This document shows, one piece after another, positions 15,542 through 55,254 of a DNA stretch of 64,000 nucleotides (the stretch's first letter is position 1; every line of letters starts with the position of its first letter). The stretch comes from a bacterium (GTDB taxonomy: Bacteria > Patescibacteriota > Minisyncoccia > Phycocordibacterales > UBA1550): positions 4,130-68,129 of the forward strand of contig JAUSES010000029.1 in assembly GCA_030649835.1 (NCBI GenBank), in the 5' to 3' direction. A program made the position numbers and the translations under genes. The notes beneath the pieces were generated by a model. That model had not been told where the DNA came from. It made no database searches and saw only the letters and a program-made list of their open reading frames with translations.

Positions 15542-16255
15542 CTATTTCACAAGTGCCAAGGTGAGTGCGACGATTGCTGCTGTTTCGGCGCGGAGGATTT
15601 GGGGGCCGGTGGTAACAATGGGGATTTTGTGTGAGTGTAAAAACGCTATTTCCTCATCTGTGAAACCTCCTTCGGGGCCGATGAACAGCGAAACGGGTGA
15701 GACTGTGTGCTTCGTGAAATACTCTCGCGCGGATGTTTCTCCACGTGGGTCAAACACGATAAAGTTTTTGTGGGGGATATCTTCCGTTTTTATAATTTCT
15801 AAAATCTCTGGCACCGTTGTGCGCCCAGACTGTTCTGATGCTTCACGCACTATCTTTTGCGCGCGTTCATAGTTCACTCCCTTCTTTTCACTTCGGTCTG
15901 CTTGCACGGGCACAATGCGCGAGGCACCAAGCTCGGTTGCTTTTTCCAACACCATTTCAAAATTATCCTTTTTAATAAGTGCTAGATACAAAGTAACTTC
16001 ACGAAGTGATGAAGGAATGTGTTTCTTTTCCAAAACTTTAAGTGTTGCGAGACTTTTAGACAGTGAAACAAATTCACACAAGGCCTCATCCCCTTTCCCA
16101 TCAAAAAGAACAGCCTTGTCGCACGCCTCCATGCGAAGCACATTCCGCCATTGATTAAGGAGACCCTTGTCCACTAGATTAAACTCAGCGCCCTCAGGCG
16201 GAAGCTCTTTCTTCGGAAAATCCTTATCGTCCACAAAAAATCTATGTAGTTTCAT
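15542..16255 (-). CDS. rsmE: 16S rRNA m3U1498 methyltransferase RsmE
   Basis: EKATELG, EASEQSGR, IGPEGGF, ILRAETA motifs. Confidence 0.96.
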   Translation of the reverse strand: MKLHRFFVDDKDFPKKELPPEGAEFNLVDKGLLNQWRNVLRMEACDKAVLFDGKGDEALCEFVSLSKSLATLKVLEKKHIPSSLREVTLYLALIKKDNFEMVLEKATELGASRIVPVQADRSEKKGVNYERAQKIVREASEQSGRTTVPEILEIIKTEDIPHKNFIVFDPRGETSAREYFTKHTVSPVSLFIGPEGGFTDEEIAFLHSHKIPIVTTGPQILRAETAAIVALTLALVK

Positions 16256-16381
16256 CCCGTTAGAAGTAGGAAATTATTAAAAATTTCCGTAGTTAACTAA
16301 TAAATTGTCAGCCTAAATACATTTATCATAAATTCCCCCTAAACGCCACCCCTGAACCATATGACTTCTAACGGGATTCAT
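16253..16381 (-). mobile_element. Start-codon-associated miniature element, copy 1 (CCCGTTAGA...TCTAACGGG)
   Basis: ATGAATCCCGTTAGA...TAACTACGGAAA..TTTCCTACTTCTAACGGG abuts the rsmE ATG. Confidence 0.8.
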
Positions 16382-16391
16382 GTTGTTAAAA

Positions 16392-16670
16392 TTATTCAAA
16401 CAAAGAGGCGTGTGTGCCAATGTTTACCAAAAGCAATACTAACACGTCTTTTTCTTTGCGATACAGAAGTAAAATATCATTTTGAACATGACATTCTCGT
16501 ATTCCAACGAATTCACCTTTCAACTCATGATCTTTATATTGAGCAGGGATTTTTTCGCTTTTCTTAAGCAACAAAACTACTTCATCAAGCTTTTTAATAT
16601 GGAAATCCTTGTGCTGCTCAACACGCTTAAGTGACTTTCTGTATTGATTCGATGAAATAACGTGGTACAT
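16392..16670 (-). CDS. YafQ-family mRNA interferase toxin
   Basis: YKDHELKG, RECHVQNDILLLY, IGTHASLF. Confidence 0.92.
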   Translation of the reverse strand: MYHVISSNQYRKSLKRVEQHKDFHIKKLDEVVLLLKKSEKIPAQYKDHELKGEFVGIRECHVQNDILLLYRKEKDVLVLLLVNIGTHASLFE

Positions 16671-16672
16671 AT

Positions 16673-16960
16673 TTATTTACCAAGAATTTCACGGTGCATC
16701 TGTTCAACATCGTCATACGCTTTAATCTTTCCACTTTTATAATCCCTAAGGGTTTTTTCTGCAATACGTACCAACTCTCGTTTCTTTTCCTCAGGCCAAT
16801 AGTCGGCACTCATTACCGGAAAAGGAATGGACTTTGTATTTACTACTTGTGCAAGAAAAAGCTTCATTCCTGTCGACATATCCAAACCCATAGACTTAAA
16901 GATTTTACTCGCATCACTTTTCATCTTCTTGTCCACCCTAAATTGTAGTGTTGTGGTCAT
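16673..16960 (-). CDS. DinJ/RelB-family antitoxin
   Basis: LQFRVDKKMK...GLDMSTGMKLFLAQV...IPF; upstream of YafQ. Confidence 0.9.
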   Translation of the reverse strand: MTTTLQFRVDKKMKSDASKIFKSMGLDMSTGMKLFLAQVVNTKSIPFPVMSADYWPEEKKRELVRIAEKTLRDYKSGKIKAYDDVEQMHREILGK

Positions 16961-17094
16961 AAATACAGTATACACCCGCAATCTTCCTTGTCAATACATT
17001 GTCACTACATCAAAATAGTCTATCAGGTCAGCGCAGAAAACAAAAACTCGGCCTGCCGTGAAGCAGACCGAGGTATTGAAAATGAATGCAAAAA

Positions 17095-17601
17095 TTAAAT
17101 AGTGCGACGAAAAAAAACGAAATTTGTATCTGCGCTCCATTCACCGTCATAATGATAATTATTGGGAAGATTCTTCCTTAAATCACTCCTTTTGTAATAC
17201 TCTTGAATTCGTTTATATTCGTTCAAGACAACATTCACCTCCTCTATTAAAGCAACTTCGAATCCACCTTTATCTGAGAGACTGCTACATTGTAAGAACA
17301 TTTGTAGTCCGCGACGACTTTGCGGAAATAGCTCATAGCCAAGCTCTGAAATACGAGCATATGTGTTTCTAAGTTTTGCGCCATTTCCAAAGCCAAGATT
17401 ACGATTAGACGCTATGACTAACTCAGCCCCCGTCTCCTTGCTGTACGTCCTTTCATAATGTCCAACATCCTTAATGGAAGTGGCGGCCTGACTCAAAGCA
17501 GTCAACACCATATTTCTGAGGCATTCTTTTCTGTCTTTTGCCAGCCTATGATTAACACCAGGGGTAATTGTACTAAATGTTGAAAAACGTGAATTGTTCA
17601 T
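17095..17601 (-). CDS. Hypothetical protein resembling CPR C-lectin-like (DGR-target-type) proteins
   Basis: LGF..GA.L...YAR..ELG.EL and C-terminal W.....FVF.RR pattern, recognised from memory. Confidence 0.5.
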   Translation of the reverse strand: MNNSRFSTFSTITPGVNHRLAKDRKECLRNMVLTALSQAATSIKDVGHYERTYSKETGAELVIASNRNLGFGNGAKLRNTYARISELGYELFPQSRRGLQMFLQCSSLSDKGGFEVALIEEVNVVLNEYKRIQEYYKRSDLRKNLPNNYHYDGEWSADTNFVFFRRTI

Positions 17602-17740
17602 CGTGCTTCTCCCAAAGTTGATAAAACGGTTAAATTTTGCCCCTCAATCCTCAAAGGACTACTGAAACAAATATAGCAAGTATTTAGGCTTTTGTCAAGT
17701 CAAAATTTGCAACAATTTAGAATTGTGGTACGATACCCAC

Positions 17741-18337
17741 ATGTCCTACTTAATCCCAACTGTTATTGAAAAGTCGCCACAAGGCGAACGTGCGTATGAT
17801 ATTTACTCGCGCCTACTCAAGGAGCGCATCATTTTCCTTTCGGGCGCTATTGATGATGACACGGCAAACATCACCATCGCTCAGCTTCTTTTTCTTGAAT
17901 CTGAAGATCCAAAAAAAGATATTTCTTTATACATCAACTCCCCCGGTGGCTCCGTGACTGCAGGAATGGCGCTCTACGACACCATGCAACACGTGAAGCC
18001 AGATGTTTCTACTATTTGTGTTGGAATGGCAGCATCAATGGGTGCAGTGCTTCTCTCTGCGGGCGCAAAGGGTAAGCGTTTCATACTTCCCAATGCTGAG
18101 GTAATGATTCACCAGCCACTCGGGGGCACCGAGGGGCAGGCGTCCGACATCGCCATCACTGCAAAACATATTTTGAAAATAAAGGAGAATTTGAATAAAA
18201 TACTTTCAAAAAACACCGGCAAGCCTCTCGCACAAATAGAAAAAGACACCGACCGCGACTTTTTCATGTCCGCCGAAGAGGCTAAAAAGTATGGCATCAT
18301 CGACGAGATTTACAAACCCAAGAATCCGCGAAGCTAG
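17741..18337 (+). CDS. clpP: ATP-dependent Clp protease proteolytic subunit
   Basis: [34 protein letters not shown]. Confidence 0.98.
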
Positions 18338-18403
18338 CCTGCAAAAAAACATCCCCCGCCTTTTTGAAAAAGGCGGGGGATGTTTTTTTGCAGGCTAGCT
18401 TCG
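18329..18403. terminator. 75-bp perfect palindrome, probable bidirectional terminator
   Basis: 37-bp perfect arms between convergent clpP and AAA ATPase genes, overlapping the clpP stop. Confidence 0.75.
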
Positions 18404-18414
18404 GCCAAATATCA

Positions 18415-19554
18415 CTAAAGCAGGTACTCCGGCCATGTATCTTTATTGATCACTTTAATACCTAAATTCTTAAATCTCTTTGCAAAAGCTTCTCTAGTTA
18501 ATGCATTAACCTTACTATCTTGCCATTTGCATTCAAAAGCATTGATATATTCACTTTTTCTTTCAACTATATCCACCTCACTCCCGCTATAGGTGCGCCA
18601 AAAACACATATCGACTGATTCATTTTCATGACGATATTTCTTGAGTCGTTCAATAAATACAAAATTTTCCCACAGTTGTCCGATGTCAGTGCGATTTTCA
18701 ATTTGTGCAAAGTTACTTACCACTGCATTACGAATACCGAGATCAACAAAATAGTATCGTTTATTTTTCCCAATTTCGTTTCTTTCGTTCTCAGTATTTA
18801 CGCTTGTTGAAGATGCAATAATGAATGATTTTTCTAAAATACCAATATATTTTTCTACTGTAGTTCGCGACAGCTGTACCCTTGTTGCAATCTCGTTAAT
18901 AGACACATCGTGCCCAATTTGGAGTGCCAACATTTTAAGCACACTTCTAATTCCTTCATGATTTCTTACCCCCTCAAATTCAAGAATGTCTTTATACAAA
19001 TACGCTTGCGTGATATCACGCATCATTATTTCTTTTAGCTTCGTATCATTTTCTTTGCGTATTGCTGGATAATTACCGTATACCAAAACATCGTGAACGA
19101 CCGAAAGCGTCATCACTCGCCCCAAAGTGAGGTCTATCTCGTGCATATCAAGAGGATAGAGATTGAGATAGCTTGCCCTTCCCGTGAGTGGCTCCGTGGT
19201 ATGGTGCGCGAGTCCGAAAGCAGAAGAACCTGTCACTATAAAAATGGCATCCTTATATGTATCCACCAAGAACTTTAAGGTAAGTCCCGGCTCTTCCAAA
19301 TACTGAGCCTCATCTATGATCACCAATTTTGCATTATTGAGGATCGGCGACACTCTCCCTATTGTTCGTGAGGAAAGCTCCTTTGCTGCAATCCGGTCAT
19401 CCCCCTGTAGCCAAACCTTTTTGCCAGAATAGGCGTCAAAATAATCTCGCAGTAGTGTTGTTTTTCCTGCCTGACGCGGTCCATAGACAACAAGGACTTT
19501 TCCTTCTCGCGCAAATTTTTCAATGTTCTTAGATTGTCTGCGAATGAATTTCAT
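18415..19554 (-). CDS. AAA_14 ATPase with DUF4143 C-terminal domain
   Basis: GPRQAGKTT, IIDEAQ, TGSS, YFVDLGIRN, EVDIV...FECK. Confidence 0.9.
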   Translation of the reverse strand: MKFIRRQSKNIEKFAREGKVLVVYGPRQAGKTTLLRDYFDAYSGKKVWLQGDDRIAAKELSSRTIGRVSPILNNAKLVIIDEAQYLEEPGLTLKFLVDTYKDAIFIVTGSSAFGLAHHTTEPLTGRASYLNLYPLDMHEIDLTLGRVMTLSVVHDVLVYGNYPAIRKENDTKLKEIMMRDITQAYLYKDILEFEGVRNHEGIRSVLKMLALQIGHDVSINEIATRVQLSRTTVEKYIGILEKSFIIASSTSVNTENERNEIGKNKRYYFVDLGIRNAVVSNFAQIENRTDIGQLWENFVFIERLKKYRHENESVDMCFWRTYSGSEVDIVERKSEYINAFECKWQDSKVNALTREAFAKRFKNLGIKVINKDTWPEYLL

Positions 19555-19818
19555 TACTGAAAGCATAGCATACTAGCAATTTTAAAGCAAATATCGCAAA
19601 CATAGTTACATAATTAAAGCAAATATCGCTTTTTTTGAGTGTCTTCACCTCCTGCCCACAGTCTCAAACACTTGCTTGTGCTCAGCACAAGCGGTATTAT
19701 AAAAATGTACCCAATTTTGTAATTTATATTGACACTTTTATTAAGGGGCGATAACCACCCGCAGATTTGGAGAAAACCGCATAAACATTAAGGATTTCGA
19801 GAACTGGCGGGATTATAT

Positions 19819-21351
19819 ATGGACATTAACATTGCACTCACGCTGGGCGGCGTGATGGCAATTTTGGTCGGAGCGATACTAGGCTATGTTTTGCGGTGGT
19901 TTATTTCAATCAGCAAACGGGGATCTGTTGAAATAGAAATAAAGCAGGTGCTCCTTTCTGCAAAGGAAGAGGCACAAAAAATAATAGAAGATGCCGACCG
20001 AAAAGCCGAAGTGTACGGACGCGAGCTTCACGAGGAAGAACGCGAACAAAGTGAACGATTCAAAAAAATAGAAGAGCGACTTATAAAAAAAGAAGAGTTT
20101 CTCGACAAACGACAGCTTGATGTAGATGGCGAAGCAAATCAGATAAAAGAAAAGGAGGAGGAGCTCCGTATGCTCCGTGAAAAAACAAAAAAAGAAACGG
20201 AGCTTGCGCGTCATGAGCTTGAGCGTGTTGCACATCTCGACACAGAGAGCGCAAAAGAGGAATTACTAAAGCGCGTGGAAATGCAGAGTGAGGAAGACAT
20301 CCTCGTACGTATCAAAAAAATAGAGACCGATGGAGAAGCTCGCCTTGCATTAAAAGCACGCGATATCCTTGCGACATCCATTCAGCGTCTCGCTACTTCC
20401 ACCGTCGCAGAAATGATGGCAACTTCGGTTCCTATTGCATCAGATGAAATCAAGGGGAAGATTATTGGGAAGGAAGGCCGTAATATCCGCGCATTTGAGC
20501 GCGCAGCGGGTGTTGAGGTTATTATTGATGACACCCCAGGCTCTATCCTCATTTCATCTTTTGACCCCGTTCGTCGGCAAATCGCTCGTGTAGCACTCGA
20601 GCAACTCATAGAAGACGGGCGTATCCAGCCTGCAAAAATAGAAGAGGCTGTGGAAAAAGCAAAAGAAGAAGTAAATAAAATAACGAGAGAGAAAGGCGAG
20701 CAGGCTGCATATGAGTGTGGTGTGTTCAACCTTGACCCGCGCATCATTGCCATCCTTGGGCGCCTTCATTTCCGTACAAGCTTCGGACAAAATGTTTTGC
20801 AACACTCAATAGAAATGGCGCACATAGGCGGAATGATAGCAGAGGAAATAGGCGGAGATGTCGCCGTCACAAAAGCAGGAGCGCTCCTTCACGACCTCGG
20901 CAAGGCGGTAGACCACGAAGTGCAAGGGACCCATGTGGAAATTGGAAGAAAGATTCTGCAAAAGTTTGGCGTGGATGTGCGGATCATCCAAGCAATGCAG
21001 TCCCACCACGAGGAATACCCCTACGAGACACTAGAGTCAATTATTGTCCAGACTGCAGACTCCATTTCTGGTGGGCGCCCCGGTGCGCGACGTGACTCTG
21101 CAGAAAACTACATAAAGCGCCTTGAAGACCTTGAGGGTATTGCAAAATCCTTCCCCGCTGTGGAAAAAACCTATGCAATACAAGCCGGAAGAGAGCTTCG
21201 CGTGTTTGTACGCCCAGAGGAAATCAGCGACCTCGAAGCAAAGAAGCTTGCGCGCGACATCGCAATACGCGTAGAAAAGGAGCTCAAGTACCCAGGTGAA
21301 ATAAAAGTAGCAGTGATTCGTGAATCACGAGCGATAGAGTACGCGAGGTAG
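19819..21351 (+). CDS. rny: Ribonuclease Y
   Basis: N-terminal TM, coiled coil, KH (KGKIIGKEGRNIR), HD (LLHDLGK). Confidence 0.97.
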   Translation: MDINIALTLGGVMAILVGAILGYVLRWFISISKRGSVEIEIKQVLLSAKEEAQKIIEDADRKAEVYGRELHEEEREQSERFKKIEERLIKKEEFLDKRQLDVDGEANQIKEKEEELRMLREKTKKETELARHELERVAHLDTESAKEELLKRVEMQSEEDILVRIKKIETDGEARLALKARDILATSIQRLATSTVAEMMATSVPIASDEIKGKIIGKEGRNIRAFERAAGVEVIIDDTPGSILISSFDPVRRQIARVALEQLIEDGRIQPAKIEEAVEKAKEEVNKITREKGEQAAYECGVFNLDPRIIAILGRLHFRTSFGQNVLQHSIEMAHIGGMIAEEIGGDVAVTKAGALLHDLGKAVDHEVQGTHVEIGRKILQKFGVDVRIIQAMQSHHEEYPYETLESIIVQTADSISGGRPGARRDSAENYIKRLEDLEGIAKSFPAVEKTYAIQAGRELRVFVRPEEISDLEAKKLARDIAIRVEKELKYPGEIKVAVIRESRAIEYAR

Positions 21352-21371
21352 GACAGAAATAAAATTGTGTA

Positions 21372-21416
21372 TTAGTAAGCCCCTGATTTTGCTTCGCAAA
21401 ATCAGGGGCTTACTAA
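21372..21416. terminator. Hairpin terminator after rny
   Basis: TTAGTAAGCCCCTGATTTTGC-TTC-GCAAAATCAGGGGCTTACTAA perfect stem. Confidence 0.7.
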
Positions 21417-21463
21417 ATTAATAGTTCAAAAAATAAACCCCCAAAAGTCCAAGTCCCCAATTT

Positions 21464-21493
21464 CGCAATAAACAGCTATAGCTGTTTATTGCG
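21464..21493. repeat. 30-bp palindrome upstream of the PaaX-like gene
   Basis: CGCAATAAACAGCTATAGCTGTTTATTGCG; second copy at 22150-22179. Confidence 0.9.
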
Positions 21494-21523
21494 CGAATCA
21501 ATTAAGTGGTATATACTATCAAA

Positions 21524-22111
21524 ATGTCCGCAAGTAAACTCCAAAGGCATGCGCGCCAAAAGCCCCGTCGTAGTGCCTTGCAGCAAAAAATTCTTCTTCT
21601 CTTGTCCGCTGGCCTCGCGCTCGGGCTTACCCGTAACCCAAATCAATACTTTCGCATTGTACGAGAGGCAGGAAAAGAGTTGGACAAAATAAACCGCGGC
21701 TCTCTTAATCGCGCGATCCGCTCTCTGTATGAATCAAAGCTTGTTTCCACAAAAGACAACCATGATGGCACACTGACACTAGTGTTGTCTAAAGAAGGGA
21801 AGCAGCTTGCGTTGACGTACAACATTAATAACATGGAGATAAAAAAGCCGACACAATGGGACGGAAAGTGGCGGATTGTGATGTTTGATGTGCCAGAGCC
21901 ACTCAAAAAAGTGCGCGACTCGCTTCGTATGCATTTTAAAAATATGGGATTTTATGAATTTCAGAAATCTGTGTTTGTGCATCCGTATCCGTGCGCAAAG
22001 GAGATAGAGTATATTGTGGAGTTTTATGAGGCGCAAAAATATATTCGATTTATTGTTGCGACAGATATTGATAACGCACTGGAGCTGAAGAAGAATTTCC
22101 ATCTTCTTTGA
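21524..22111 (+). CDS. PaaX-like protein (winged helix plus Cas2-like ferredoxin-fold domain)
   Basis: WDGKWRIVMFDVPE..KKVRDSLR...GF..FQKSVFVHPYPC. Confidence 0.85.
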   Translation: MSASKLQRHARQKPRRSALQQKILLLLSAGLALGLTRNPNQYFRIVREAGKELDKINRGSLNRAIRSLYESKLVSTKDNHDGTLTLVLSKEGKQLALTYNINNMEIKKPTQWDGKWRIVMFDVPEPLKKVRDSLRMHFKNMGFYEFQKSVFVHPYPCAKEIEYIVEFYEAQKYIRFIVATDIDNALELKKNFHLL

Positions 22112-22139
22112 ACGCTCAGTGTCACCGCCCCCGCCGCCA

Positions 22140-22189
22140 CTCTCTCCCGCGCAATAAACAGCTATCGCTGTTTATTGCGCGGGAGAGAG
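22140..22189. repeat. Extended copy of the same palindrome downstream of the PaaX-like gene
   Basis: CTCTCTCCCGCGCAATAAACAGCTATCGCTGTTTATTGCGCGGGAGAGAG. Confidence 0.9.
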
Positions 22190-22317
22190 CTAGTGGGAAA
22201 CATTAGTGTTATTTCCGTACGTGTCTTTAGTAAGGGGTTTTATGGTTTTGCAGAAAAAAGCCCACTGCGCCTTGGGAGACGAGCGGGCTGAATTAGAACC
22301 AAAATATTGTATAGAGG

Positions 22318-23614: not shown

Positions 23615-23627
23615 AAGTACAGTCCAT

Positions 23628-26336: not shown

Positions 26337-26362
26337 GATTTATTTATCTTTAAAAAGTTTTC

Positions 26363-27611: not shown

Positions 27612-29579
27612 TTATGAAATCGTCTTGTTTGCCAGCGAAACATCATTGTGTCCACTTCCGGCCCCAACGATGTTCACAGATTCTCCATTATTTGATACAT
27701 CCTCTTTTGGTATTAGCTCTGTAATGGTTGGTATCAATACGGTAAAAGCTGTTCCCTTGCCTTCAACAGTATCAACCCATATCTGCCCGCCGTGGCGCAC
27801 TACAATACTCTTTACAATAAAGAGTCCTAGTCCTGAACCATCTGTCTGCAAATGAATCACATTTGCAGCACGGAAAAACTTAGAAAATAGTTTTGGAAGG
27901 TCTGTTTTAGGAATACCTACACCCGTATCACTAATTTTTATCTCTATATAATCACCATGTTTACTAACTGAGATGGTGACCCTCCCCCTTGGGAACGTGT
28001 ACTTCATAGCATTATCAACAATGTTCTGGAGCGCTATGAGAAGTTTTTCTGGATCAAAAACAAAGTCAGGAATTGTGCCAGCATGATTTTCAAGCCGTAC
28101 CTCAATATTTCGTTCTTTTGAAGGAAGGACGGTGCTTTCCATAAGCATACTAAGAAGTCTCATAAAGTCATTTTTCCCAAAATCATACCCAAACTTACTA
28201 TTCTCTATACGTGAAACATTAAGTAAGTCATTAACGAGCTGGATCATTTTCTCGTTCGTTTCATACCCACGCCTTAACATACCTTTTTGGGTCTCAGAGA
28301 CTTCACCAAGATCTCCATCAAGTAACAGCTTAAGTACCCATTTCACTCCCGAAAGCGGTGTGCGTAGCTGATGTGCAGCCACAGAGATAAAATCTGATTT
28401 CAGTTTATCAAATTCTCTTAGGCTACCTACCATGGAGTTAAAAACATCTCCGAATTGCCCAATCTCATCGTTAGATGTATGCTCTACAGTTTGATTAAAA
28501 TCACCCCCCGCTATTTTTTTAGCAACCAAAGAGTATTTACGTATAGGACCAACGACCTCCGTTTCCAAAATAACAGCGAGTACAACAACGAGAATTACCG
28601 TAAACACTAAACCAATCCACAACATGCGAAGTTTAAGTTGGTTCACCCGAACCTTATAGACATCTTTAAATACCTGAATTTCGGTTAGTCCTGCTATTTG
28701 TTTTTTCCCGTCTGTTCCAACAAAAAATACTGGATTTAATCGCACAATAACATCTACGGTTTTCCCGTTTGGCGTTATGTATGTACGATCAATTTCAAAC
28801 GGGGCCTTTAGTTCGCCACTCATTACACCAAGACGAGCTTTTTTATACTCAGGAGGATCGTCCTTAGTTTCGTTTGGGTTGTTTTGAGTACTTGCTATAA
28901 TATTTAATTTTTCATCAAAAATGATAAAGTTATTAAAAAAATAGAAGTCTTTTACGCTATTTACAATTCGCTGAAGTACGTCAACACTAATTTTTCTAGT
29001 AACAATAAGTGAGCGCATATTTTGGTCAACAAATCTCGTAACAACCTGAAGAACCTTTTTCGCTTCTTCAATATCTGACAAATTTTTTGAGCGCGACGAG
29101 ACAGAAATATCAATAACATTTACCATTTCTGATGAAGTATCGTCGCCTTTAAAAAACACAGGAACATGTCTCTCAAATTCGTAAAAAGTCCCCCTGTCTT
29201 TTTCTGCACTTATTCCCACTCTTTCAACTTCTATCTTTTTCAAGATTTCCCTGTCCTCAAAACTAATCTCCTTTCCTATCAGCTCGTGGTCTTTTGCAGC
29301 AACATAGTATCCGCGCGCATCATTAACATTAATATATTTCAGCTCAGAGCCTGCTCCAATTTTATCTATTGTTGTTTGTAGAGTATCTTGCTGTATATAA
29401 TTTTGAATAAAGGTACGTTCTATCTGATCCCCCAAAATATTTATCACCCCTTGTGAGTCTTCTAAAACTTGCTGTCGTAGGTTTACCGAAACCATATCTA
29501 CGATAACCCAAAAAACTATCGCGAGAATAAACGTAGTTACCGTAACCAAAACAAGATTTACTTTTGTGCCAAGCTTCAT
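27612..29579 (-). CDS. HAMP-domain sensor histidine kinase
   Basis: 2 TM, DEIGQF, AHQLRTPL, NAMKY, DTGVGI, GSGLGL. Confidence 0.93.
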   Translation of the reverse strand: MKLGTKVNLVLVTVTTFILAIVFWVIVDMVSVNLRQQVLEDSQGVINILGDQIERTFIQNYIQQDTLQTTIDKIGAGSELKYINVNDARGYYVAAKDHELIGKEISFEDREILKKIEVERVGISAEKDRGTFYEFERHVPVFFKGDDTSSEMVNVIDISVSSRSKNLSDIEEAKKVLQVVTRFVDQNMRSLIVTRKISVDVLQRIVNSVKDFYFFNNFIIFDEKLNIIASTQNNPNETKDDPPEYKKARLGVMSGELKAPFEIDRTYITPNGKTVDVIVRLNPVFFVGTDGKKQIAGLTEIQVFKDVYKVRVNQLKLRMLWIGLVFTVILVVVLAVILETEVVGPIRKYSLVAKKIAGGDFNQTVEHTSNDEIGQFGDVFNSMVGSLREFDKLKSDFISVAAHQLRTPLSGVKWVLKLLLDGDLGEVSETQKGMLRRGYETNEKMIQLVNDLLNVSRIENSKFGYDFGKNDFMRLLSMLMESTVLPSKERNIEVRLENHAGTIPDFVFDPEKLLIALQNIVDNAMKYTFPRGRVTISVSKHGDYIEIKISDTGVGIPKTDLPKLFSKFFRAANVIHLQTDGSGLGLFIVKSIVVRHGGQIWVDTVEGKGTAFTVLIPTITELIPKEDVSNNGESVNIVGAGSGHNDVSLANKTIS

Positions 29580-29704
29580 CCCGTTAGAGGTAGGAAACGC
29601 TGTGCGTTTCCGTAGTTATTTAATAAATAGTAATACATCAATGTTTTATTATTATAATCCCGCTCTCTCATTATACAAACCTGATGACCTCTAACGGGAT
29701 TCAT
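29577..29704 (-). mobile_element. Start-codon-associated miniature element, copy 2
   Basis: ATGAATCCCGTTAGAGG...TAACTACGGAAACGCACAGCGTTTCCTACCTCTAACGGG then the kinase ATG. Confidence 0.8.
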
Positions 29705-31976: not shown

Positions 31977-32178
31977 TCGGGGTGCCGTGCCCAAGGCATG
32001 AATCAGCTGATTCAGAATCGAACTCGGCCTAATCTAAATTTCTTATGGAAATTTCCGCGGAAGTGTTTGGACACTTCCGGTTAAAGCTTTAGTCGGGGTG
32101 CCGAGGAATCCCCGCCTGCCATCGCCTGACTGATCCTTACGAAGCGATTGGCAGTGGCGGGCAGGGAACTCGGCCTAT
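31977..32178 (-). pseudogene. Two displaced 3' halves of tRNA-Pro, each carrying a secondary insertion
   Basis: AGGCCGAGTTCGATTCTCGGCACCCCGA-like segments at 31977-32031 and 32093-32178. Confidence 0.85.
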
Positions 32179-32314
32179 ATTCTAGTGAGTGAGCGAAAAG
32201 TAAATACCAATTTACTTTTCCGAGCGAACGACGAATATATTGTACCCAGTTATATCTAAATTTCTAAAGGAAATTTCCGCGAAAGCATCTATATGCTTTC
32301 GGTTAAAGAATGTG

Positions 32315-32385
32315 TCGGGGTGCCGAGAATCGAACTCGGCCTATCTGCTCCCAAAGCAGACGTACTACCGATATACTACACCCCG
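32315..32385 (-). tRNA. tRNA-Pro(TGG), intact inner copy
   Basis: CGGGGTGTAGTATATCGGTAGTACG-TCTGC TT TGG GA GCAGA-TAGGCCGAGTTCGATTCTCGGCACCCCGA. Confidence 0.95.
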
Positions 32386-32399
32386 ACACATTCTTCAAC

Positions 32400-32562
32400 C
32401 CCACGCAGACGTACTACCGATATACTACACCCCGACTAAAGCTTCAACCCCAAAGCAGACGTACTACCGATATATAACTGCATACAATATATCCTGCGTT
32501 CGCTCGAAAATACAAACTCCATGTTTGTATTTTACTCACTCACTTGGATATACTACACCCCG
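32400..32562 (-). pseudogene. Two displaced 5' halves of tRNA-Pro
   Basis: CGGGGTGTAGTATATCGGTAGTACGTCTGC at 32400-32434, and interrupted at 32449-32562. Confidence 0.85.
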
Positions 32563-38913: not shown

Positions 38914-39043
38914 ATGAATCCCGTTAGAGGTCGCTCAGTTTATTAAACAGCACCTGCGGGACTTTATGATAAAAGGTTAGATTTATTTACTATGCGATAA
39001 TTAACTACGGAAATGCATGGCATTTCCTACCTCTAACGGGATG
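38914..39043 (+). mobile_element. Start-codon-associated miniature element, copy 3
   Basis: ATGAATCCCGTTAGAGG...TAACTACGGAAATGCATGGCATTTCCTACCTCTAACGGG then ATG 39041. Confidence 0.8.
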
Positions 39044-39292
39044 AAAACAGCTACCAAAAACATTGTGGGGCTCAAGGAATTGCGAGAAAATATGGACTCG
39101 TATATTTCTGGTGTTCAAAAAGGTAAGTCTTTTATTGTGGTTCGACGTTCAGAGCCAATTTTTCGCCTTTCTCCTGTTGATATTTGGGGAGACGAGGGCG
39201 TGTGGGAAACTGCTGTCGATTTCACCAAAATAAAAAAGGGAGGTGTGCCACTTGCTGATGTAATTGCTTCACTTAAGCGCCGCAATGCATAA
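39041..39292 (+). CDS. Phd/YefM-like antitoxin
   Basis: IVGLKELREN...V..G.SFIVVRRSEPIF. Confidence 0.8.
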   Translation: MKTATKNIVGLKELRENMDSYISGVQKGKSFIVVRRSEPIFRLSPVDIWGDEGVWETAVDFTKIKKGGVPLADVIASLKRRNA

Positions 39293-42261: not shown

Positions 42262-42636
42262 GAGTACAGTATACAACTGACGACTCACAACTACCAACCA
42301 ACTGACTGACTGGCGCATTTGGCCTTCGGCCAAATGCGCTTTAACGTGCGTTTTTGTAGACCACACACCCCCAGTATCTAGCCAGGAAATTGCATCCTTC
42401 GAATCGTCTTTTGAATTAGCAAATTCACGTCTTGGACGCAGACTCTCAGTAGACACTCCTGGGAAGCAATCCAGTGAGTTGGTACTTAATCCTGGATTGC
42501 TTCGCCTTGCTCGCAAAGACGGAGTTTGAAGTTATATAAGGTGTGAGGTGTTACGCGTTTTTTAGTTGTTAGTTGTAAATTGTATCTCGTTAGTTGTATC
42601 TTGTCAGTTGAGAGTAGTTAGTGGTATTATTTCCCC

Positions 42637-47940: not shown

Positions 47941-48034
47941 TTTATGAGACAGCTCGTTTACTCAAGCCATTTTGGCAGAAGTAGACGAGCTGTTTTTATT
48001 AAAATTTAAGAATACGAGAGATGCTCGCTCCTTT

Positions 48035-48643: not shown

Positions 48644-48737
48644 GATTGATTATCATCTTACCGTAACTATCACAAAGTATCTACATGGTCCTCCCTAAAT
48701 ATTGCATTTCATACTTCATATGATAAACTGTTCTCAT

Positions 48738-49097
48738 ATGATAAATACCGACGATCTCAAAAATACTCTTCTGGAAGAAAAGGCACGGCTCATGCTCGAG
48801 CTTTCTGGTGTTGGACATGAAAATCCTGAGATAGAGGGCGACTGGCAACCATCTGCGCCAGACTTAAATATCCCCACCGCAGACATCAATGATACCGCAG
48901 ACAGCATGGAAGCTTTTGAAGAAGCTGCTGCCATAGAAGTGGAGCTTGAAGCGCGACTTCTTGAAGTAGACTCTGCGCTCTCACGCATTGAAGCCGGCAC
49001 ATACGGCATTTGTCGCATCTGCGGAAGCGCCATCGAAGATGCGCGTTTGCATGCAAACCCCGCAGCACCAACCTGCATCGCGCACCGAGAAGGATAA
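48738..49097 (+). CDS. TraR/DksA-family zinc-finger protein
   Basis: ALSRIEAGTYGICRICG..I...RL.ANP.A.TC..H. Confidence 0.88.
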   Translation: MINTDDLKNTLLEEKARLMLELSGVGHENPEIEGDWQPSAPDLNIPTADINDTADSMEAFEEAAAIEVELEARLLEVDSALSRIEAGTYGICRICGSAIEDARLHANPAAPTCIAHREG

Positions 49098-49218
49098 GTT
49101 GCTCCGCAACTTATCCTTCTCGGTGCGCACAATTGACCTGTGACAATTAACATGTGACGAATGCACCCTCTGTCAATTGTCAAATGTTAATTGTTAAACG
49201 TCCCCCCCCCTTTTTTTT

Positions 49219-50751
49219 ATGCAATTTTCAAAACTATTTTCTGCGCAAATAGTTGGTCTTGTCCCCCATATTGTTGAAGTTGATCTCTCCAAGGGGCTCA
49301 ACAATTTTTCTCTAGTGGGGCTTCCGAGTGCGTCGGTAGATGAGTCCCGCGACCGCGTGAGCGCTGCAGTCAAAAACTCTGGCTACGAATCACCAAAACA
49401 AAAAAATCAAAAAACAGTAATCTCCCTCGCGCCTGCCGAGCTCAAAAAAGAGGGCTCGCATTACGACCTCGCCATCGCACTCGCGTATCTTTTTGCATCC
49501 GGTGAAACAAACTTTGACCCCAAAGGGAAACTTTTTCTCGGCGAGCTCGCGCTGGACGGCACCCTTCGCCCCATTCACGGTGCTCTTCTCATTACCAACG
49601 CCGCAAAACAAGCCGGCTTCACAGAAATATTTTTACCAAAAGTGAATGCCGAGGAAGCCGCACTCGTAGAGGGGATAGTTGTGTATGGTGTGCGCAATCT
49701 CATTGAAGCACTGCACCACCTTGATAAAAAGATGAAATTTAATTTGACCGCGTTTGAGCGAACTGAAAAAACTCCACAGACAAATACAACAAACAAAACA
49801 AACGTTGATCTCTCGCACATCAAGGGACAAGAGTTTGCAAAACGCGCACTTGAAATAGCCGCCGCAGGCAATCACAACCTTGCTTTGTGGGGGCCACCAG
49901 GAACAGGGAAGACAATGCTCGCGCAGGCGTTTCCGCACTTGCTCCCCGATTTACAAAATGAACATTCGCTGGAGGTGACTGGTATTCACTCGGTCGCAGG
50001 AACACTCCGTGAAAACATTATGACGCGCCCGCCTCTTCGCGCGCCACATCACACTGCCTCGTACCCTGCGGTTATTGGCGGAGGAACCACACCAAAGCCG
50101 GGGGAGATTACACTCGCGCATCGCGGTGTGCTTTTTTTAGATGAATTTCCTGAGTTTGATAGGCGTGTCATTGAGTCACTTCGTGAGCCACTTGAAGAGG
50201 GGCACATTCGCATCACGCGTTCAAAAGGTCATGACACATTTCCTGCACGATTCATTTTGCTCGCCGCAATGAACCCATGCCCGTGTGGAAAATATGGAAG
50301 CGAAGAACGCTGTACCTGTATGCCCGGCACGCTCGCTTCATACACGCGGAAAATTTCTGGCCCCATTGTAGACCGCATTGAGCTTTGGGTAAAAGTTTCC
50401 CACATGAGCCACGATAAACTCTCACAAAAAAGTGCGAGTGAAAACACGGAGAGAGTTCGTGCGCGGATTGAATCTGCGCGCAAAGTACAACAAGCACGCT
50501 TCGCAAACCATTCGCGTAAGATTACGACCAATAGCGAAATGCGCGCAGATGATATTGAAACTTTTATACAACTCTCACCAAAACTTCGCACTCTTTTCAA
50601 TGCTTCCGCTGAACGCCTCAGGCTTTCCCCACGCGCACATCACAAAACCATCAAGGTCGCCCGCACCATTGCAGACCTCGACCAGTCTCCCGATATCCAA
50701 GAAAAACATCTCCTCGAAGCCTTTGCATATAGACCAACGGAGCTGAGGTAG
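49219..50751 (+). CDS. comM: YifB/ComM Mg-chelatase-like AAA+ ATPase
   Basis: GPPGTGKTML, PHHTAS, LAHRGVLFLDEFPEF, AMNPCPCG. Confidence 0.9.
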   Translation: MQFSKLFSAQIVGLVPHIVEVDLSKGLNNFSLVGLPSASVDESRDRVSAAVKNSGYESPKQKNQKTVISLAPAELKKEGSHYDLAIALAYLFASGETNFDPKGKLFLGELALDGTLRPIHGALLITNAAKQAGFTEIFLPKVNAEEAALVEGIVVYGVRNLIEALHHLDKKMKFNLTAFERTEKTPQTNTTNKTNVDLSHIKGQEFAKRALEIAAAGNHNLALWGPPGTGKTMLAQAFPHLLPDLQNEHSLEVTGIHSVAGTLRENIMTRPPLRAPHHTASYPAVIGGGTTPKPGEITLAHRGVLFLDEFPEFDRRVIESLREPLEEGHIRITRSKGHDTFPARFILLAAMNPCPCGKYGSEERCTCMPGTLASYTRKISGPIVDRIELWVKVSHMSHDKLSQKSASENTERVRARIESARKVQQARFANHSRKITTNSEMRADDIETFIQLSPKLRTLFNASAERLRLSPRAHHKTIKVARTIADLDQSPDIQEKHLLEAFAYRPTELR

Positions 50752-50900
50752 GGGAACGAGGGGGACACACGGGACAGGAAGAACGAAAAATATACGAAAC
50801 AACGCGCTGTCGCGTAGCGACTGCGCGCTTCTTCCCCGTGTGGGGTTCCCCTTGTGTGCCCCTGTTCTTCTTGTCCCAAATGTTTCCCCCCCCCCGCCCC

Positions 50901-51974
50901 CTAAAACGGATTCTTCGCTCCACGCACTTCAAAGTGCAAATGTGAACCACTAGATTTTCCTGTATTCCCCACCTCGCCAATAAATTGCCCCTTGTCCACG
51001 CGTCCACCCACTGCGGTAAATACAGTGCTCAAATGTCCATACAAAGTTTGTGTACCGTTTGGATGTTCAATCACAATATAGTTGCCATAGCCACCCCCAC
51101 ACGTTCGTCCACAAGCGCCTGTTTTAAACTTGCTTACAATCACAATACCTTCCGCCGAGGCATACACTGGAGTCCCCCTCGGTGCGCCATAGTCCACACC
51201 ATTGTATCCATGAATCCCCTGTGTCTTGTGTCCCAAAGGAACTGGGTGAGCATAGTATCCATTATATGCAGGATATGAAGCAATAGTACGAGAGCGACTT
51301 CCACTTGTGGTGCTTCCTGATGTTGTTGGCACTACTACCTCAGCTCCATTTGGCACAATGACAATATCTCCCACAGAAAGTTTTTCTGTCGCAGTCATGT
51401 CGTTAAATTCAAGAATTTCTGCCATATCTCCTTTGTATTTCTTTGCAATACTCTGAAGTGTGTCTCCTTTTTGTACCGTGTGCTGAACGCCGTCAATTGG
51501 TAAAACAACAAGGTGCTGACCGTCACGAAGCGTAGCCCCTCGAGAAAGGTCGTTTGCCCAAAGAATAGTGTTGACTGACACCCCAAACATTTTCGCCACC
51601 TGAGCTATCGTGTCCCCAGAACGAACAACGTAGAGACTTACTTTACCCTGATGATCTCCTTGCTCCACGTCAGCGAGGGTTCCGGATGGTCCTGTTTCTG
51701 AAAGGAGGGCGCTGTCGTCCACAACAGTAATATCGCCACCTCCTTTTGCGGGATTTGGGTCAAAATTAACCGCCCCTTCCAAAAGGCTAATTGTCTGCGA
51801 ATTCTGCGCCTCAGAACGCACCGCCAAAACAGCTGTATTATTTGACTTCTTTTCAGATAAATAGAAAAAACCCCTAGCCTCTACTACGGCAAGGGGGGCG
51901 AGGAGCCCAAAAATAACAGACAAAAGAAAAACTAAGGTGCTCAAAAACCCGCCGAAAGTCGCGCCCTTTTGCAT
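50901..51974 (-). CDS. LysM x2 plus M23 peptidase
   Basis: YVVRSGDTI, HTVQKGDTL, HGYNGVD, YGHL, HLHFEV. Confidence 0.92.
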   Translation of the reverse strand: MQKGATFGGFLSTLVFLLSVIFGLLAPLAVVEARGFFYLSEKKSNNTAVLAVRSEAQNSQTISLLEGAVNFDPNPAKGGGDITVVDDSALLSETGPSGTLADVEQGDHQGKVSLYVVRSGDTIAQVAKMFGVSVNTILWANDLSRGATLRDGQHLVVLPIDGVQHTVQKGDTLQSIAKKYKGDMAEILEFNDMTATEKLSVGDIVIVPNGAEVVVPTTSGSTTSGSRSRTIASYPAYNGYYAHPVPLGHKTQGIHGYNGVDYGAPRGTPVYASAEGIVIVSKFKTGACGRTCGGGYGNYIVIEHPNGTQTLYGHLSTVFTAVGGRVDKGQFIGEVGNTGKSSGSHLHFEVRGAKNPF

Positions 51975-52215
51975 GGTTACCTCTGCTTTTATTCCAGCTT
52001 TCCTCGAGATGGAAAGACCAAAAATAGTCCACCACGACTTTTTTCGGGTAAACCTTGAAAAATATGAGTATTTCGCCCGGACTGCTTTCTTTTGCCCTCG
52101 TCCGAGGTCCTGTAATTTTGTAGAAATAGGTCTATATAATAGGTGCCGTTCGGTCGTACGGTCAGGTCGGGAAAAGTCGTGTTTTCTGTGAACCTGGGGC
52201 CAATCCCCATGGTTA

Positions 52216-52404
52216 AGGGTCGGTCCAAGATTTAATGTCTAGCAAAAACTTTAAAATTTACTGCGAAAATCATGAATCTCGAGGAGGCATATATCATATG
52301 CTGACAAGAGATTGATGATTTGCAGCGGAAATTTTAGGGTTTTGGCAGACAAACAAGCGCAAGCTGTATCTTTATGCCCTGTGTTTAAATCTTGGACCGA
52401 CCCT
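52216..52404. mobile_element. 189-bp MITE-like element with perfect 20-bp terminal inverted repeats
   Basis: AGGGTCGGTCCAAGATTTAA ... TTAAATCTTGGACCGACCCT; internal long hairpin. Confidence 0.7.
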
Positions 52405-52553
52405 GTTTAACGATAGCATAAATCATTACTGAAAAGGAGGGCTCTGGGGATATGTTGTGGACAACTTTTGGGTCGAAAATCCCTTGACTTTTCTATATAT
52501 TCTTGGCATAATTCTATGTACATAAACACAAGCTTGTGTAATAATTCAAACTA

Positions 52554-55064
52554 ATGAACAACTCAAAAGAAACATTTGAATTTAAACCTCATCTGCAAGA
52601 AATTTCTGATGTAGAAGTCATCGGCACCCCTTCAACATTGGACTCAACAAACCCAAATAAGCCTGCGGAAGCAGCGAGCTACGGCATGGGTGCCCACTTT
52701 GAAAAGGCAGGAATCACAGCAGCAAGCTTTCCTGCTGAAAAACCAGAGGCGCCTGTCGCCTCTGCGGCAAACGAGACTTTTGAAAAAGGCACGGCCGGGA
52801 CAGTGAACGAGAATAAGGCTCCTCGCGGTGGAAGAGGGACAAAAGGGGCGCCAGATGAAATCAAAGAAGCTATTGAGGAGGCACAGAAAATAGAAGTCAA
52901 AATTGACCACGATTTTGCAAAACTAAAGAAGCACAAGGATGATCTCGTTCGTACGCTCGCCAAACTTCACCTTCAAGAAACTGAGGCCCTGAGGCGTGGG
53001 GTTTCTCTTGATCTTCAAAAAAAACTACGAGGCAAGGTAGATAGAGCTCAAGCAAGCCTTGATAAAATAAATGGCATTCTTCCAAAGACAACAGAAAATG
53101 GTGCGCCGAGCGAACATCAGGCTATTTTAAAAATAGTTGAAGATTATAGAAAAAATAAAGATGTCCTTAAAAAACTTTATTCAAAAATAGGAAAGGCAGA
53201 AAACGACCTTAAGAAAAAGCCGGGGGACGGCAGGATACAAGGAGAGGAAAATCGCGCTCAAGCAGAAAAGGCAATCGTGGAAACAAACCTTGCAAAAATT
53301 GCAGCCGATGCTGAGCAACTACTTGCAAAAACAGAGGCTCCATCGCTTTCAGAAGAGGCGGGGCTTTCATACACACACGCACAAGCTGTTGCCGACCGCA
53401 AGGAATGGGAAGAGCGTCACAAAAATGCGCAGGCAGATGCCGTGCTTGAATCAGTGCCAGCAGAGAATGAAATTGAGTTTGAGTCACAAGCAGTAGAAAA
53501 ATCAGCACAAGAAAACTACGCGGAGGGGTGGGAGCGTATTTGGGGTAAAAAAGAAACAGAAAAAAACAATTCAGAAATTCCCACCCTTACCGAGGTGGTT
53601 GAGGAGCCAATTGCAAAATTTGAATTGTCCGAAAGAGCGCGAAGTGGTCTCAACCCTGAACAACTAGAACTTTTTGAGAAGGTGCAGGAAGGAATTTCTA
53701 ATGCGGAAAAATCCGCCACAGAGCAAGTAAAAAAAGCAGGGATGCCAGAAAAAATGTTGGGTCTTTTACGCAAAGGTGGGGAGTCATATTCAAAGTTGCC
53801 ACTAAAAACAAAACTTCTTGTTTCTATAGCACTCTTTGGAGTAGCGTGGGCAGCAGGCGGAACCATTGCGAGCGTAGCAATAGGAGGTTCTGCTATCCAG
53901 CGCGCCCTCGGTGGTATGGCAACATTTGTCGCAGCAGAAGGGGCATTGAAAGCAAGTGCGGAAAAGGGTGGGGGTGGGCGTGGAAAATTTGAAAAATCTC
54001 GACACACCGCGGAAGCTCTGCTTGCCGGGTTCCTCGTTGGAGGTGGGGCACTCGGTCTTGCTATCAATAATGCTTTGGCTGAAGGACTCCCTTCTCATGA
54101 AACAGCAACCGCGCCTGTGGAAACTGATGCTGAAAAAATTGAAAAGTTGCGATCAGAAATAATGCCTAAAGCAAATCTTGCAGCGCTTGATACTGCACCA
54201 AATACTGACTACACTGCTGTCGCAGAGGCAGGGGATTCTCGTTGGACTCTCGTGGGCGAGGCCCTTGCCAAGGGCCCTTACGAAAAGGAGTTCAGTCTTC
54301 TTCCTCAAGGTCAGCAGGAATACGTCATTGATGCAATCAAGGATAAACTTACTGCGGGAATGACCGCGGAACAAGCGAATATGCTGAACGTAGGAGATGA
54401 AATTGATTTCAAAGAAATTTTTGCAGACAAGGATTTCATAGAGAAAACGTTTGCTGATGCGCAAAACCTCAGCACGCCGGAGCTCGAAAATATTGCGAAT
54501 TACAATCCTGATGAAGTTGCAGATGCGCCCACGGTTAAGGAAATTTTTGAACCTAAAGTAATGGATTTTTCTCCCCACGGTGCGCTTGAGGGGTCATCTT
54601 CTCCAGTACCAACAATTCCATCAGAAATTCTTCCGGGAGATCCTCCAAAAATTATAGAAAACTTCTCTCTTGAAAACCTTTCTACTCCAGATGCTCCCAC
54701 GCTAACTGAAAATCTAGCTTCAATATCTCCTATTTTTACGCCGAGCGATCCACAGATTCTTATTTACGCAAAAGAGGTAACAGACAATAATATACAATCA
54801 GTTTTTGGTAAGGTGGGTGGGTTTCTTGGATTTGGTTCTTCAGACGGGCAAGAAATATTTAAAAACTTTGCCGACAAGCCGGTTGACCAATTTATTGGAA
54901 CGAAGGCTCCGTCAGTACTTACTGTGGATGAAGGAAAAATGAAAGAACTAATTGAAAAATCAGTTGAGCAGACGCATGTCAAATCAATGCCTGGAGAAAA
55001 GGTTGTGGATTATTTAAACCGCTCTGCAGCAATCAACATTGAAAGGTTCACAAAAAACGGTTAA
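52554..55064 (+). CDS. Large hypothetical protein (coiled coil, central TM, LysM-like segment)
   Basis: 836-aa ORF; AEAGDSRWTL resembles a degenerate LysM. Confidence 0.75.
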   Translation: MNNSKETFEFKPHLQEISDVEVIGTPSTLDSTNPNKPAEAASYGMGAHFEKAGITAASFPAEKPEAPVASAANETFEKGTAGTVNENKAPRGGRGTKGAPDEIKEAIEEAQKIEVKIDHDFAKLKKHKDDLVRTLAKLHLQETEALRRGVSLDLQKKLRGKVDRAQASLDKINGILPKTTENGAPSEHQAILKIVEDYRKNKDVLKKLYSKIGKAENDLKKKPGDGRIQGEENRAQAEKAIVETNLAKIAADAEQLLAKTEAPSLSEEAGLSYTHAQAVADRKEWEERHKNAQADAVLESVPAENEIEFESQAVEKSAQENYAEGWERIWGKKETEKNNSEIPTLTEVVEEPIAKFELSERARSGLNPEQLELFEKVQEGISNAEKSATEQVKKAGMPEKMLGLLRKGGESYSKLPLKTKLLVSIALFGVAWAAGGTIASVAIGGSAIQRALGGMATFVAAEGALKASAEKGGGGRGKFEKSRHTAEALLAGFLVGGGALGLAINNALAEGLPSHETATAPVETDAEKIEKLRSEIMPKANLAALDTAPNTDYTAVAEAGDSRWTLVGEALAKGPYEKEFSLLPQGQQEYVIDAIKDKLTAGMTAEQANMLNVGDEIDFKEIFADKDFIEKTFADAQNLSTPELENIANYNPDEVADAPTVKEIFEPKVMDFSPHGALEGSSSPVPTIPSEILPGDPPKIIENFSLENLSTPDAPTLTENLASISPIFTPSDPQILIYAKEVTDNNIQSVFGKVGGFLGFGSSDGQEIFKNFADKPVDQFIGTKAPSVLTVDEGKMKELIEKSVEQTHVKSMPGEKVVDYLNRSAAINIERFTKNG

Positions 55065-55076
55065 TATTACACAAAC

Positions 55077-55254
55077 ATGAATCCCGTTAGAGATGAAAGC
55101 GTTATGTTTTTGTCACCAATAGGATATACTGAAGCTATTACTATTAACAGATTGATATAATAAGGATACGGAAACTTGTCCCGTTAGAAGCCGCGAGAGA
55201 ATCGCAACGCTGAGTTGCTTCTAACGGGATAAATTTCCTATCTCTAACGGGATG
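55077..55254 (+). mobile_element. Start-codon-associated miniature element, copy 4, with a nested ~50-bp related copy
   Basis: ATGAATCCCGTTAGAG...TACGGAAA[CCCGTTAGAAG...CTTCTAACGGG]..TTTCCTATCTCTAACGGG then ATG 55252. Confidence 0.8.

Follow-up and report, generated by a model that had tools for sequence, protein, structure and literature searches.

Bacterial MITEs (miniature transposable elements with inverted repeats) such as Correia/NEMIS, RUP and ERIC are non-coding sequences of 100-200 bp with terminal inverted repeats (TIRs) and a short target site duplication (TSD), which are co-transcribed as hairpins and also occur as nested copies. The IS200/IS605 and REP/RAYT families have neither TIR nor TSD and depend on a Y1 enzyme. 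As for small GIY-YIG nucleases, the available parts of the respective papers describe the Ssn enzymes, single-domain proteins of about 90 aa (CDD cd10448) with NTS/SRM hairpins, for which site-specific cutting of hairpin single-stranded DNA (ssDNA) was shown and an IS-like origin was raised but not shown, with no mobility, TSD or empty site shown there (Chenal et al. 2025, PMC11893778); prokaryotic stand-alone Slx1-like proteins, which are mostly vertically inherited and predicted to be repair nucleases (Dunin-Horkawicz 2006, PMC1564403); and GIY-YIG open reading frames (ORFs) in non-intron insertions at scattered sites in rRNA genes of the candidate phyla radiation (CPR), judged to lie outside ordinary homing (PMC11270868). 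Here we analysed a 64,000-nt stretch of contig JAUSES010000029.1 (the window), part of a 1.06-Mb, 43% GC draft genome (G000), in which an original prediction had placed four copies of a mobile, non-autonomous miniature element at start codons. By anatomy these four copies are MITEs, since they are short and non-coding with TIRs, target duplications, empty sites and a partner with the same ends, and like Correia/NEMIS, RUP and ERIC they are short TIR/TSD elements near gene 5' ends. Unlike in those families, the parent is about 280 bp long and has no DDE enzyme, insertion rebuilds the start codon, and core identity within one genome is only about 59%, with core lengths nonetheless of 69-76 nt; the parent system fits no tested family.

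Copy 1 (16255-16376, minus strand) is a 122-bp gene-less element with 13-bp TIRs at the start of rsmE, copy 2 (29579-29699, minus strand) a 121-bp element at the start of a histidine kinase gene, copy 3 (38919-39041, plus strand) a 123-bp element at the start of a Phd-like gene and copy 4 (55082-55252, plus strand) a 171-bp element at the start of a DUF5663 gene. Between the outer 9-mers they cover 16256-16375 (120 bp, minus), 29580-29698 (119 bp, minus), 38920-39040 (121 bp, plus) and 55083-55251 (169 bp, plus), respectively. All four lie where they had been predicted and the ATG-to-ATG spacings of 126, 125, 127 and 175 were reproduced. The last base of copy 1 is the A of the rsmE ATG, and TGAA is duplicated at 16377-16380 and 16251-16254. 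In copy 2 an open frame of 42 codons begins at the duplicated ATG (29704) and ends at a TGA overlapping the kinase ATG. The predicted subterminal hairpin was found at 39008-39027 (plus strand) in copy 3 and at the equivalent position in all four copies, and the predicted nested copy of about 50 bp is 49 bp long with the same ends and sits inside the subterminal-hairpin loop of copy 4 (55180-55228, plus strand), an arrangement also present at G000:C64:12313 and L422. For copies 1-3 folding was stronger than in 200/200 shuffles (z -3.6, -6.8 and -5.9). An Rfam scan of the window returned five tRNAs and nothing else, and no internal sigma-70 promoter was found on the sense strand in the single region scanned (copy 3). 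The host genes are intact, and Pfam matches support the predicted identities of rsmE (15542-16255, minus strand; RsmE PF04452, E 2e-43), the sensor histidine kinase (27612-29579, minus strand; HAMP/HisKA/HATPase) and the DUF5663 protein (55252-55584, plus strand; DUF5663, E 1.3e-6), but the Phd antitoxin (39041-39292, plus strand) is a candidate with a weak PF02604 match below the cut-off (E 0.0076).

The 9-mer end motif occurred 58 times in G000, compared with five occurrences of the reversed control, and the 9-mers paired into 28 elements of 45-327 bp, 19 of which lie at the start of an ORF of at least 60 aa; the four repeats are therefore not due to chance. The predicted mobility was borne out by empty orthologous sites. 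For rsmE the element was present at 0 of 18 orthologous starts (18/18 empty), four of them with the same yafQ-rsmE gene order and a single ATG; both orthologues of the Phd-like gene (G040 and G001, 90-91% aa identity; 2/2 empty) have the same upstream sequence with just one ATGAA; the kinase orthologue in G036 is empty (1/1), as are 26/27 DUF5663 loci. At the DUF5663 codon occupied by copy 4, G016 (L120) has a 119-bp relative with an 82% identical core and without the nested piece. In the reverse comparison, 38 occupied starts were found in five relatives and 31 had a usable orthologue in G000, of which 23 were scored empty and 8 occupied, with 2 of the 23 carrying a degenerate copy missed by the search pattern. 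The four repeats are thus real insertions at start codons, and a fixed host leader motif is excluded because the orthologous starts are empty. The cores of 36 copies from the genus are 69-76 nt long, core pairs with 84-93% identity occur at different genes and one short subfamily precedes three different genes in three species. Given that near-identical short copies are found at different genes, the short copies themselves move, mobilised in trans.

End statistics were based on at least 130 short metagenome copies among the matches listed, limited by the search pattern to 103-133 bp. The TIR is 13 bp long (YCCCGTTAGARRY) with covarying positions and the termini T..A or C..G, because pairing with the opposite end is seen for the base outside each 9-mer in 125/131 short copies and for the next three inner bases (positions 10-12) in 122, 119 and 112 of 133, after which it falls to background. 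The TIR takes in the T that precedes the left 9-mer as well as the A from the second ATG, and hence the duplicated target is the 4-mer TGAA. Identical 4-bp flanks were found in 72/131 short copies (shuffle mean 17.6, max 30), in 37/82 when TGAA was excluded (mean 5.5, max 13) and in 31/63 full copies (mean 16.8, max 24). The duplicated targets were TGAA (35), TAAA (9), TTTA (8), TGGA (6), TTGA (4) and others, with the consensus TNNA; duplications in G027 were mostly of 3 nt (9/18) and the commonest target in G021 was TCAA. The TGAA target originally proposed thus applies to the window copies, where the start codon is rebuilt, but it is not fixed for the family as a whole. At five unrelated sites, and likewise in nested copies, ACTTGT stands on the left in place of a duplication, which may be a donor flank carried along.

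With A or G as the last base of the TIR, an insertion into ATGA restores an ATG or GTG. In G000, 16 of the 18 TGAA-flanked elements are at gene starts against an expected fraction of 0.11 (non-coding TGAA) or 0.335 (ATGAA), the expectation being somewhat low given the crude gene model (1004 ORFs, 80% coding). Other genomes gave 14/20, 17/19 and 17/18, and G021 only 7/26 copies, so that the genome-wide enrichment at start codons is strong in G000 and lineage-dependent elsewhere. Co-orientation with the gene, which had also been predicted, was seen in all 64 determinable start copies from six genomes of the genus and G027, where the hairpin end always faces the gene; in G021 five start copies were forward and two reversed. 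As the ATG would be restored whichever way round the element inserted, the strict co-orientation suggests that a strand-specific step is likely to act at gene starts besides selection. A -10-like box lies 5-9 nt ahead of the first ATG at 21/49 occupied starts compared with 206/983 genes; many target genes are probably leaderless, and others, e.g. rsmE, lie within operons.

The longer copies envisaged by the original prediction were found, with a GIY-YIG nuclease rather than a transposase, TnpB or IscB inside. The full-length element at G000:C43:8253-8579 has the same ends and encloses a sole ORF of 85 aa (PF01541). The final codons of this ORF are formed by the right TIR, and its TGA stop overlaps with the ATG of the next gene; a second full copy in G000 spans the contig ends of C17 (C17:59318) and C67. 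Among the best 80 of 344 confirmed related nuclease loci, the left end was present at 72, the right end at 66 and both at 65, and exact-ended full elements are 274-283 bp long. The nuclease is an Slx1/UPF0213-like GIY-YIG protein of 85-86 aa, and 100 of its 120 best protein relatives end in SLTG, which is the TIR read in frame. The frame from the left host ATG runs through the nuclease in 17/28 full copies that have a left ATG, and the stop codon is supplied by the flank in 53/63 full copies, usually as part of the duplicated target and overlapping the host ATG. The nuclease is under purifying selection, with a rough nonsynonymous divergence (pN) of 0.21 versus a synonymous divergence (pS) of 0.80; Y5, G17, R25 and H29 are invariant and Y15 and E61 nearly so, these being GIY-YIG catalytic positions. 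The structural model is confident (predicted local distance difference test score, pLDDT, 91.6) and has BH0048 and Slx1 as its nearest folds. A scan of 551 sequences (2.2 Mb) for longer elements with the same pair of ends around a different gene gave none.

The hosts of the nuclease relatives are mostly Patescibacteria among the named ones, with further hosts in Omnitrophota, Elusimicrobiota, deltaproteobacteria and a Woesearchaeon bin, although bins can be contaminated; together with the small genome size, this makes it likely that G000 itself is a member of the ultra-small Patescibacteria (CPR). Pattern matches of full-length size, not all of them translated, occurred in 13/401 genomes drawn from the phylum. 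Within the genus, one nuclease subfamily precedes argS, trpS and an M16 peptidase gene (names read from N-termini). Of 8000 scored nuclease candidates, 7632 had an E-value of 1e-20 or better, not necessarily all of this subfamily, and the phage and plasmid collections contained no match to the nuclease.

The window copies align nearly gap-free with the full element up to its L-R-K-R codons and resume at the K-R-F-L codons, so that the short copies miss about 160 bp between these two points. Judged from this alignment, the four copies are gene-less, internally deleted derivatives of the GIY-YIG element of about 280 bp, and we infer that the latter is autonomous. In the full element the R23-K24-R25 and K78-R79-F80-L81 codons are complementary and would form a long-range stem of 10 bp, which is Watson-Crick paired in 56-59 of 59 full elements at each of the 10 positions. 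Double changes were seen at three of them (G-C for A-T 13 times, T-A for C-G 10 times and C-G for T-A 4 times), and a tree built without the stem positions shows about 10 and 9 joint changes of both sides. At R23 the codon CGG is used in 55/59 elements, compared with 13/215 other Arg codons. The predicted ssDNA centroid of the full element has the inner stem stacked on the TIR stem, with a whole-element z of only -1.8. The stem arm lies at positions 85-93 in full copies and 82-92 in most short copies, and 95/118 short copies ending in CC-T-R plus the TIR keep a partner of at least 5 bp, at position 82-92 or at 15. Given that the short copies retain the stem partner from the coding sequence, the subterminal hairpin is a remnant of the inner coding stem of the parent and a conserved cis element, and the compensatory changes point to a folded single strand as the substrate.

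We consider it probable that the GIY-YIG nuclease mobilises the copies in trans through such a folded single strand. One strand of the element would fold into the TIR stem with the inner stem stacked on it, forming a three-way junction; the nuclease would recognise this junction and nick at its base, and would nick the TNNA target with a 4-nt stagger, after which host polymerase and ligase would complete a copy-in or peel-and-paste reaction. We infer all of these chemical steps. An insertion into ATGA would rebuild the start codon and could therefore survive even ahead of housekeeping genes, the occupied ones including genes that we take from their N-termini, and not from family scans, to be argS, glyA, murC and rpsQ. 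Other GIY-YIG lineages in these genomes are tightly bracketed by perfect repeats of their own, at least 10 bp long, in 21/45 rows (several orthologous and not independent) versus 2/300 random windows, as expected if each nuclease serves its own ends. On balance we favour the view that these elements, about 280 bp long, are prokaryotic transposable elements of a new class, in which a bare Slx1-like GIY-YIG nuclease reads a three-way junction formed by one strand, a 4-bp duplication arises through host repair, and borrowed host start and stop signals hide the element at start codons; the window copies would be its MITEs, and sister nuclease/repeat pairs would target other neutral spots, e.g. loops of RNase P RNA and 16S rRNA.

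Several observations weigh against this proposal. Perfect duplications are lacking in 59/131 short copies, the coding sequence is no longer recognisable in the middles of the short cores (every short copy had an nhmmer E >0.02) and the median core identity among the genus copies is 59%, compared with 53% after shuffling. The well-supported independent stem pairs number 3-4 per position (p 0.125-0.25), too few for significance, and stems can be perfected by template switching in the absence of selection. Several genomes with short copies have no close nuclease relative (best E 1e-15 to 1e-25 in G014, G016 and G038), and none was found at 1e-12 in G007 and G008. Transposase genes of the Y1, DDE, rve and IS110 types are also present in G000 and might act in trans, the transposase searches covered four families only, and we know of no case in which a GIY-YIG domain joins DNA strands.

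The copies could instead belong to an ordinary MITE family moved in trans by a DDE transposase (IS5-, IS701-, IS1182- or IS1380-like, with a 4-bp duplication), the GIY-YIG gene being protecting or homing cargo like TnpB. The measured 13-bp TIR and 4-bp TSD are classic DDE anatomy and DDE-type genes are present in G000 and G031, yet, with four transposase families searched, we regard this as unlikely, given that five DDE_Tnp_1 loci lacked the ends (one isolated 9-mer with one mismatch), that no motif match was found on the G000 contigs holding DDE_Tnp_1, rve and IS110 genes, and that G021 with its 26 elements has no DDE_Tnp_1, rve or IS110 match. Moreover, the nuclease ORF takes up the whole element as far as into the TIR, the repeats differ from one GIY-YIG lineage to the next, and the only ORF between the TIRs is PF01541, which departs from a classical DDE insertion sequence. 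An IS110 or bridge-RNA type finds no counterpart either, with one unlinked IS110 gene in 1/5 genomes. Still less probable is homing-like spread, in which the nuclease cuts empty or occupied sites and recombination places or swaps copies via the conserved ends, so that short copies are largely relics or converted cassettes. Such spread would fit the finding that more sites are shared between species than expected with some 20 copies per several hundred ATGA genes, given that 8 of the 31 orthologous G000 starts were occupied, plus the 2 missed by the search pattern. It would also fit the cores at one gene in two species, which are 91% and 82% identical despite saturated adjacent four-fold sites (19/46 and 4/14), and argS, occupied by a full element in three genomes but by a short one in another. 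The true 3-4-nt duplications, which track the second codon of each host gene, are however not products of homing, and the same subfamilies stand at unrelated genes. A GIY-YIG homing endonuclease was likewise rejected on the grounds of many unrelated sites, a bare 85-aa domain and the TSD.

RNA-mediated movement by the endonuclease together with a reverse transcriptase (RT) acting in trans, as in Penelope-like elements, with the stems as RNA structure, is in our opinion very improbable. It would account for the strict co-orientation with transcription, for cores that are rich in substitutions and poor in indels and for sister cassettes located in RNA stem-loops, and G000 has an RT gene (C17:20418-21029, L424), which we take from its motif to be of the diversity-generating retroelement type. 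The ends are nevertheless exact, without tails or truncation, the substitutions between close cores are mostly transitions (CT 30, AG 22, AT 9, AC 8, GT 5, CG 1) and A-C mismatches on the sense strand are as frequent as G-T. Adenine-specific mutagenesis was rejected in the absence of an adenine bias among these substitutions, and a Penelope-like retroelement because no RT lies within the element and the one RT in G000 is unlinked. The least credible alternative, in which we place hardly any weight, combines the fixed leader, excluded above by the empty orthologues, with mobilisation of the IS200/IS605 or RAYT HUH type, to which the original prediction had compared the copies. The subterminal hairpin and short target recall such elements, Y1 genes occur in 5/5 element-rich genomes, and a probable folded single-strand substrate and an orientation relative to a short target are likenesses to IS200/IS605 and REP/RAYT (as far as the available discussion in PMC11893778 goes). 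The comparison did not hold for the enzyme, given the TIRs, the 4-bp duplication, the GIY-YIG partner and 12 Y1 loci from five element-rich genomes without ends (one isolated 9-mer with one mismatch); the single-strand hairpin logic behind it may still hold. Guiding by the cores was rejected as well, since cores matched their own flanks no better than those of other copies (6.40 vs 6.39 and 6.06 vs 6.17 nt, n=53).

Compared with the described nucleases, the element is like Ssn in that a single-domain GIY-YIG gene is tied to inverted repeats that are also found gene-less, but the Ssn repeats in the available part of that paper are 20-50-nt hairpins near the gene (PMC11893778). Unlike in Ssn, the repeat arms are here the element ends and overlap the ORF, with a 4-bp TSD, an inner coding stem and a start-codon bias. 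The nuclease is 38-39% identical over about 60 aa to genes of G000 that we presume, from a motif, to be Ssn-like; a crude NTS/SRM pattern had no match at the element and none at these genes either. Its best sequence and fold matches are stand-alone Slx1-like/UPF0213 proteins (1ZG2, BH0048; 1YWL, EF2693), with which it shares the minimal GIY-YIG form. Unlike the proteins in the available part of PMC1564403, however, its gene is patchy, TIR-bounded and at many unrelated loci. As in PMC11270868, G000 has a GIY-YIG insertion in 16S rRNA; the word "inverted" is absent from the main text of that paper, and no TIR, TSD, start-codon insertion or gene-less derivative is described in the part available. 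No description of the element was found in the available parts of PMC11893778, PMC1564403, PMC11270868 and PMC5718144 (the supplementary tables on Ssn may list some of the proteins), nor elsewhere in a search whose scope left out subscription journals, ISfinder and supplements.

For the host gene, the predicted RNA fold places two bases of the start codon, A and U, inside the TIR stem. This raises the question of how translation begins at a start codon that lies half within a 13-bp stem. Of 100 short copies, 30 have an open frame all the way between the duplicated ATG and the end of the element, compared with 11.7 in shuffles and with 10 and 9 in the other two sense frames; 25 of these 30 copies are from metagenomes, kin are not independent and only copy 2 among the window copies is open. 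This suggests that some subfamilies may be selected for translational coupling. About 2% of genes, housekeeping genes among them, have their leaders changed by elements, in genomes with few Shine-Dalgarno-like motifs (106/1004 genes). RNase III occurs in 5/5 genomes and could process the leader stem, but its presence is no evidence of this. To our knowledge the GIY-YIG type of enzyme does not move DNA elements on its own, and at about 280 bp the element is far shorter than any autonomous insertion sequence known to us. If the nuclease is the mobiliser, the transposition chemistry would lie outside the DDE, HUH, serine, tyrosine and DEDD classes; this would provide a function for thousands of unannotated proteins and bear on the mobile origin raised for Ssn. 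With a minimal substrate of some 120 nt delimited by the inner stem, the claim is directly testable in vitro.

Related cassettes and variant forms were also observed. A related GIY-YIG cassette with a variant 12-bp repeat lies at the P3 position of RNase P RNA (G000:C34:33521-33790, L085; also L326), directly upstream of an RNase P match (Rfam RF00010, E 6e-25), and RNase P-like sequence is also the site of a further GIY-YIG lineage, which has a 15-bp repeat (L331, L334 and L461; position by eye). At G000:C14:16112-16324 (L090; also L465) a GIY-YIG ORF between 13-bp inverted repeats is part of an insertion of about 305 nt in the first variable helix of 16S rRNA. In a sister family (G000:C43:286 and C37:1457; L327 and L333) the protein ends in SYLTG, the repeat is one of its own and the TGA is supplied by the flank; the two copies in G000 have identical proteins, and one of them lies just ahead of a secE-like gene. 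Tandem elements with one short spacer shared between a right and a left end (L046, L067, L068, L041, L324 and L248) have the form expected of a circle junction; among 15 joints listed in a comparison of assembled contigs, which drop rare forms, with L001, none was a precise-excision or circle joint. A search of sequencing runs for the element gave one matching run, possibly the one from which the assembly was made, and no RNA run among the matches listed, and viral contigs gave three pattern matches, without duplication in the two listed. Paired element ends at L184, L240, L277 and L295 enclose tRNA-like sequence (by eye), without target duplication where seen. A hairpin insert of 52-57 nt occurs at a constant place just inside the left TIR, in full and short copies with unlike cores (G000:C17:59371, C31:23426, C43:6141 and 8306, C48:16944, C58:28619, C64:12469 and 27912); 10/14 genome matches to its end motif were scored as within these elements, and it is possibly a second element targeting the first.

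In the window, an MmeI-type restriction-modification gene and a RelB/YafQ pair flank rsmE (12782-16981), and in G040 the relB-like gene has its own element copy (L351). On the minus strand, 67-3882 is a long array in which 51-nt (17-codon) units are repeated and stretches of 864 and 1344 nt are duplicated, probably encoding a repeat surface protein. Other short palindromic repeat families were seen at 21464, 22150 and 57838, at 9658 and 58207, at 8170 and 44352 and at 42408 and 57714, with 8-21 pattern matches each across the genome, and direct and inverted repeats of a tRNA 3' end surround the tRNA at 32315-32385 (32032-32510).

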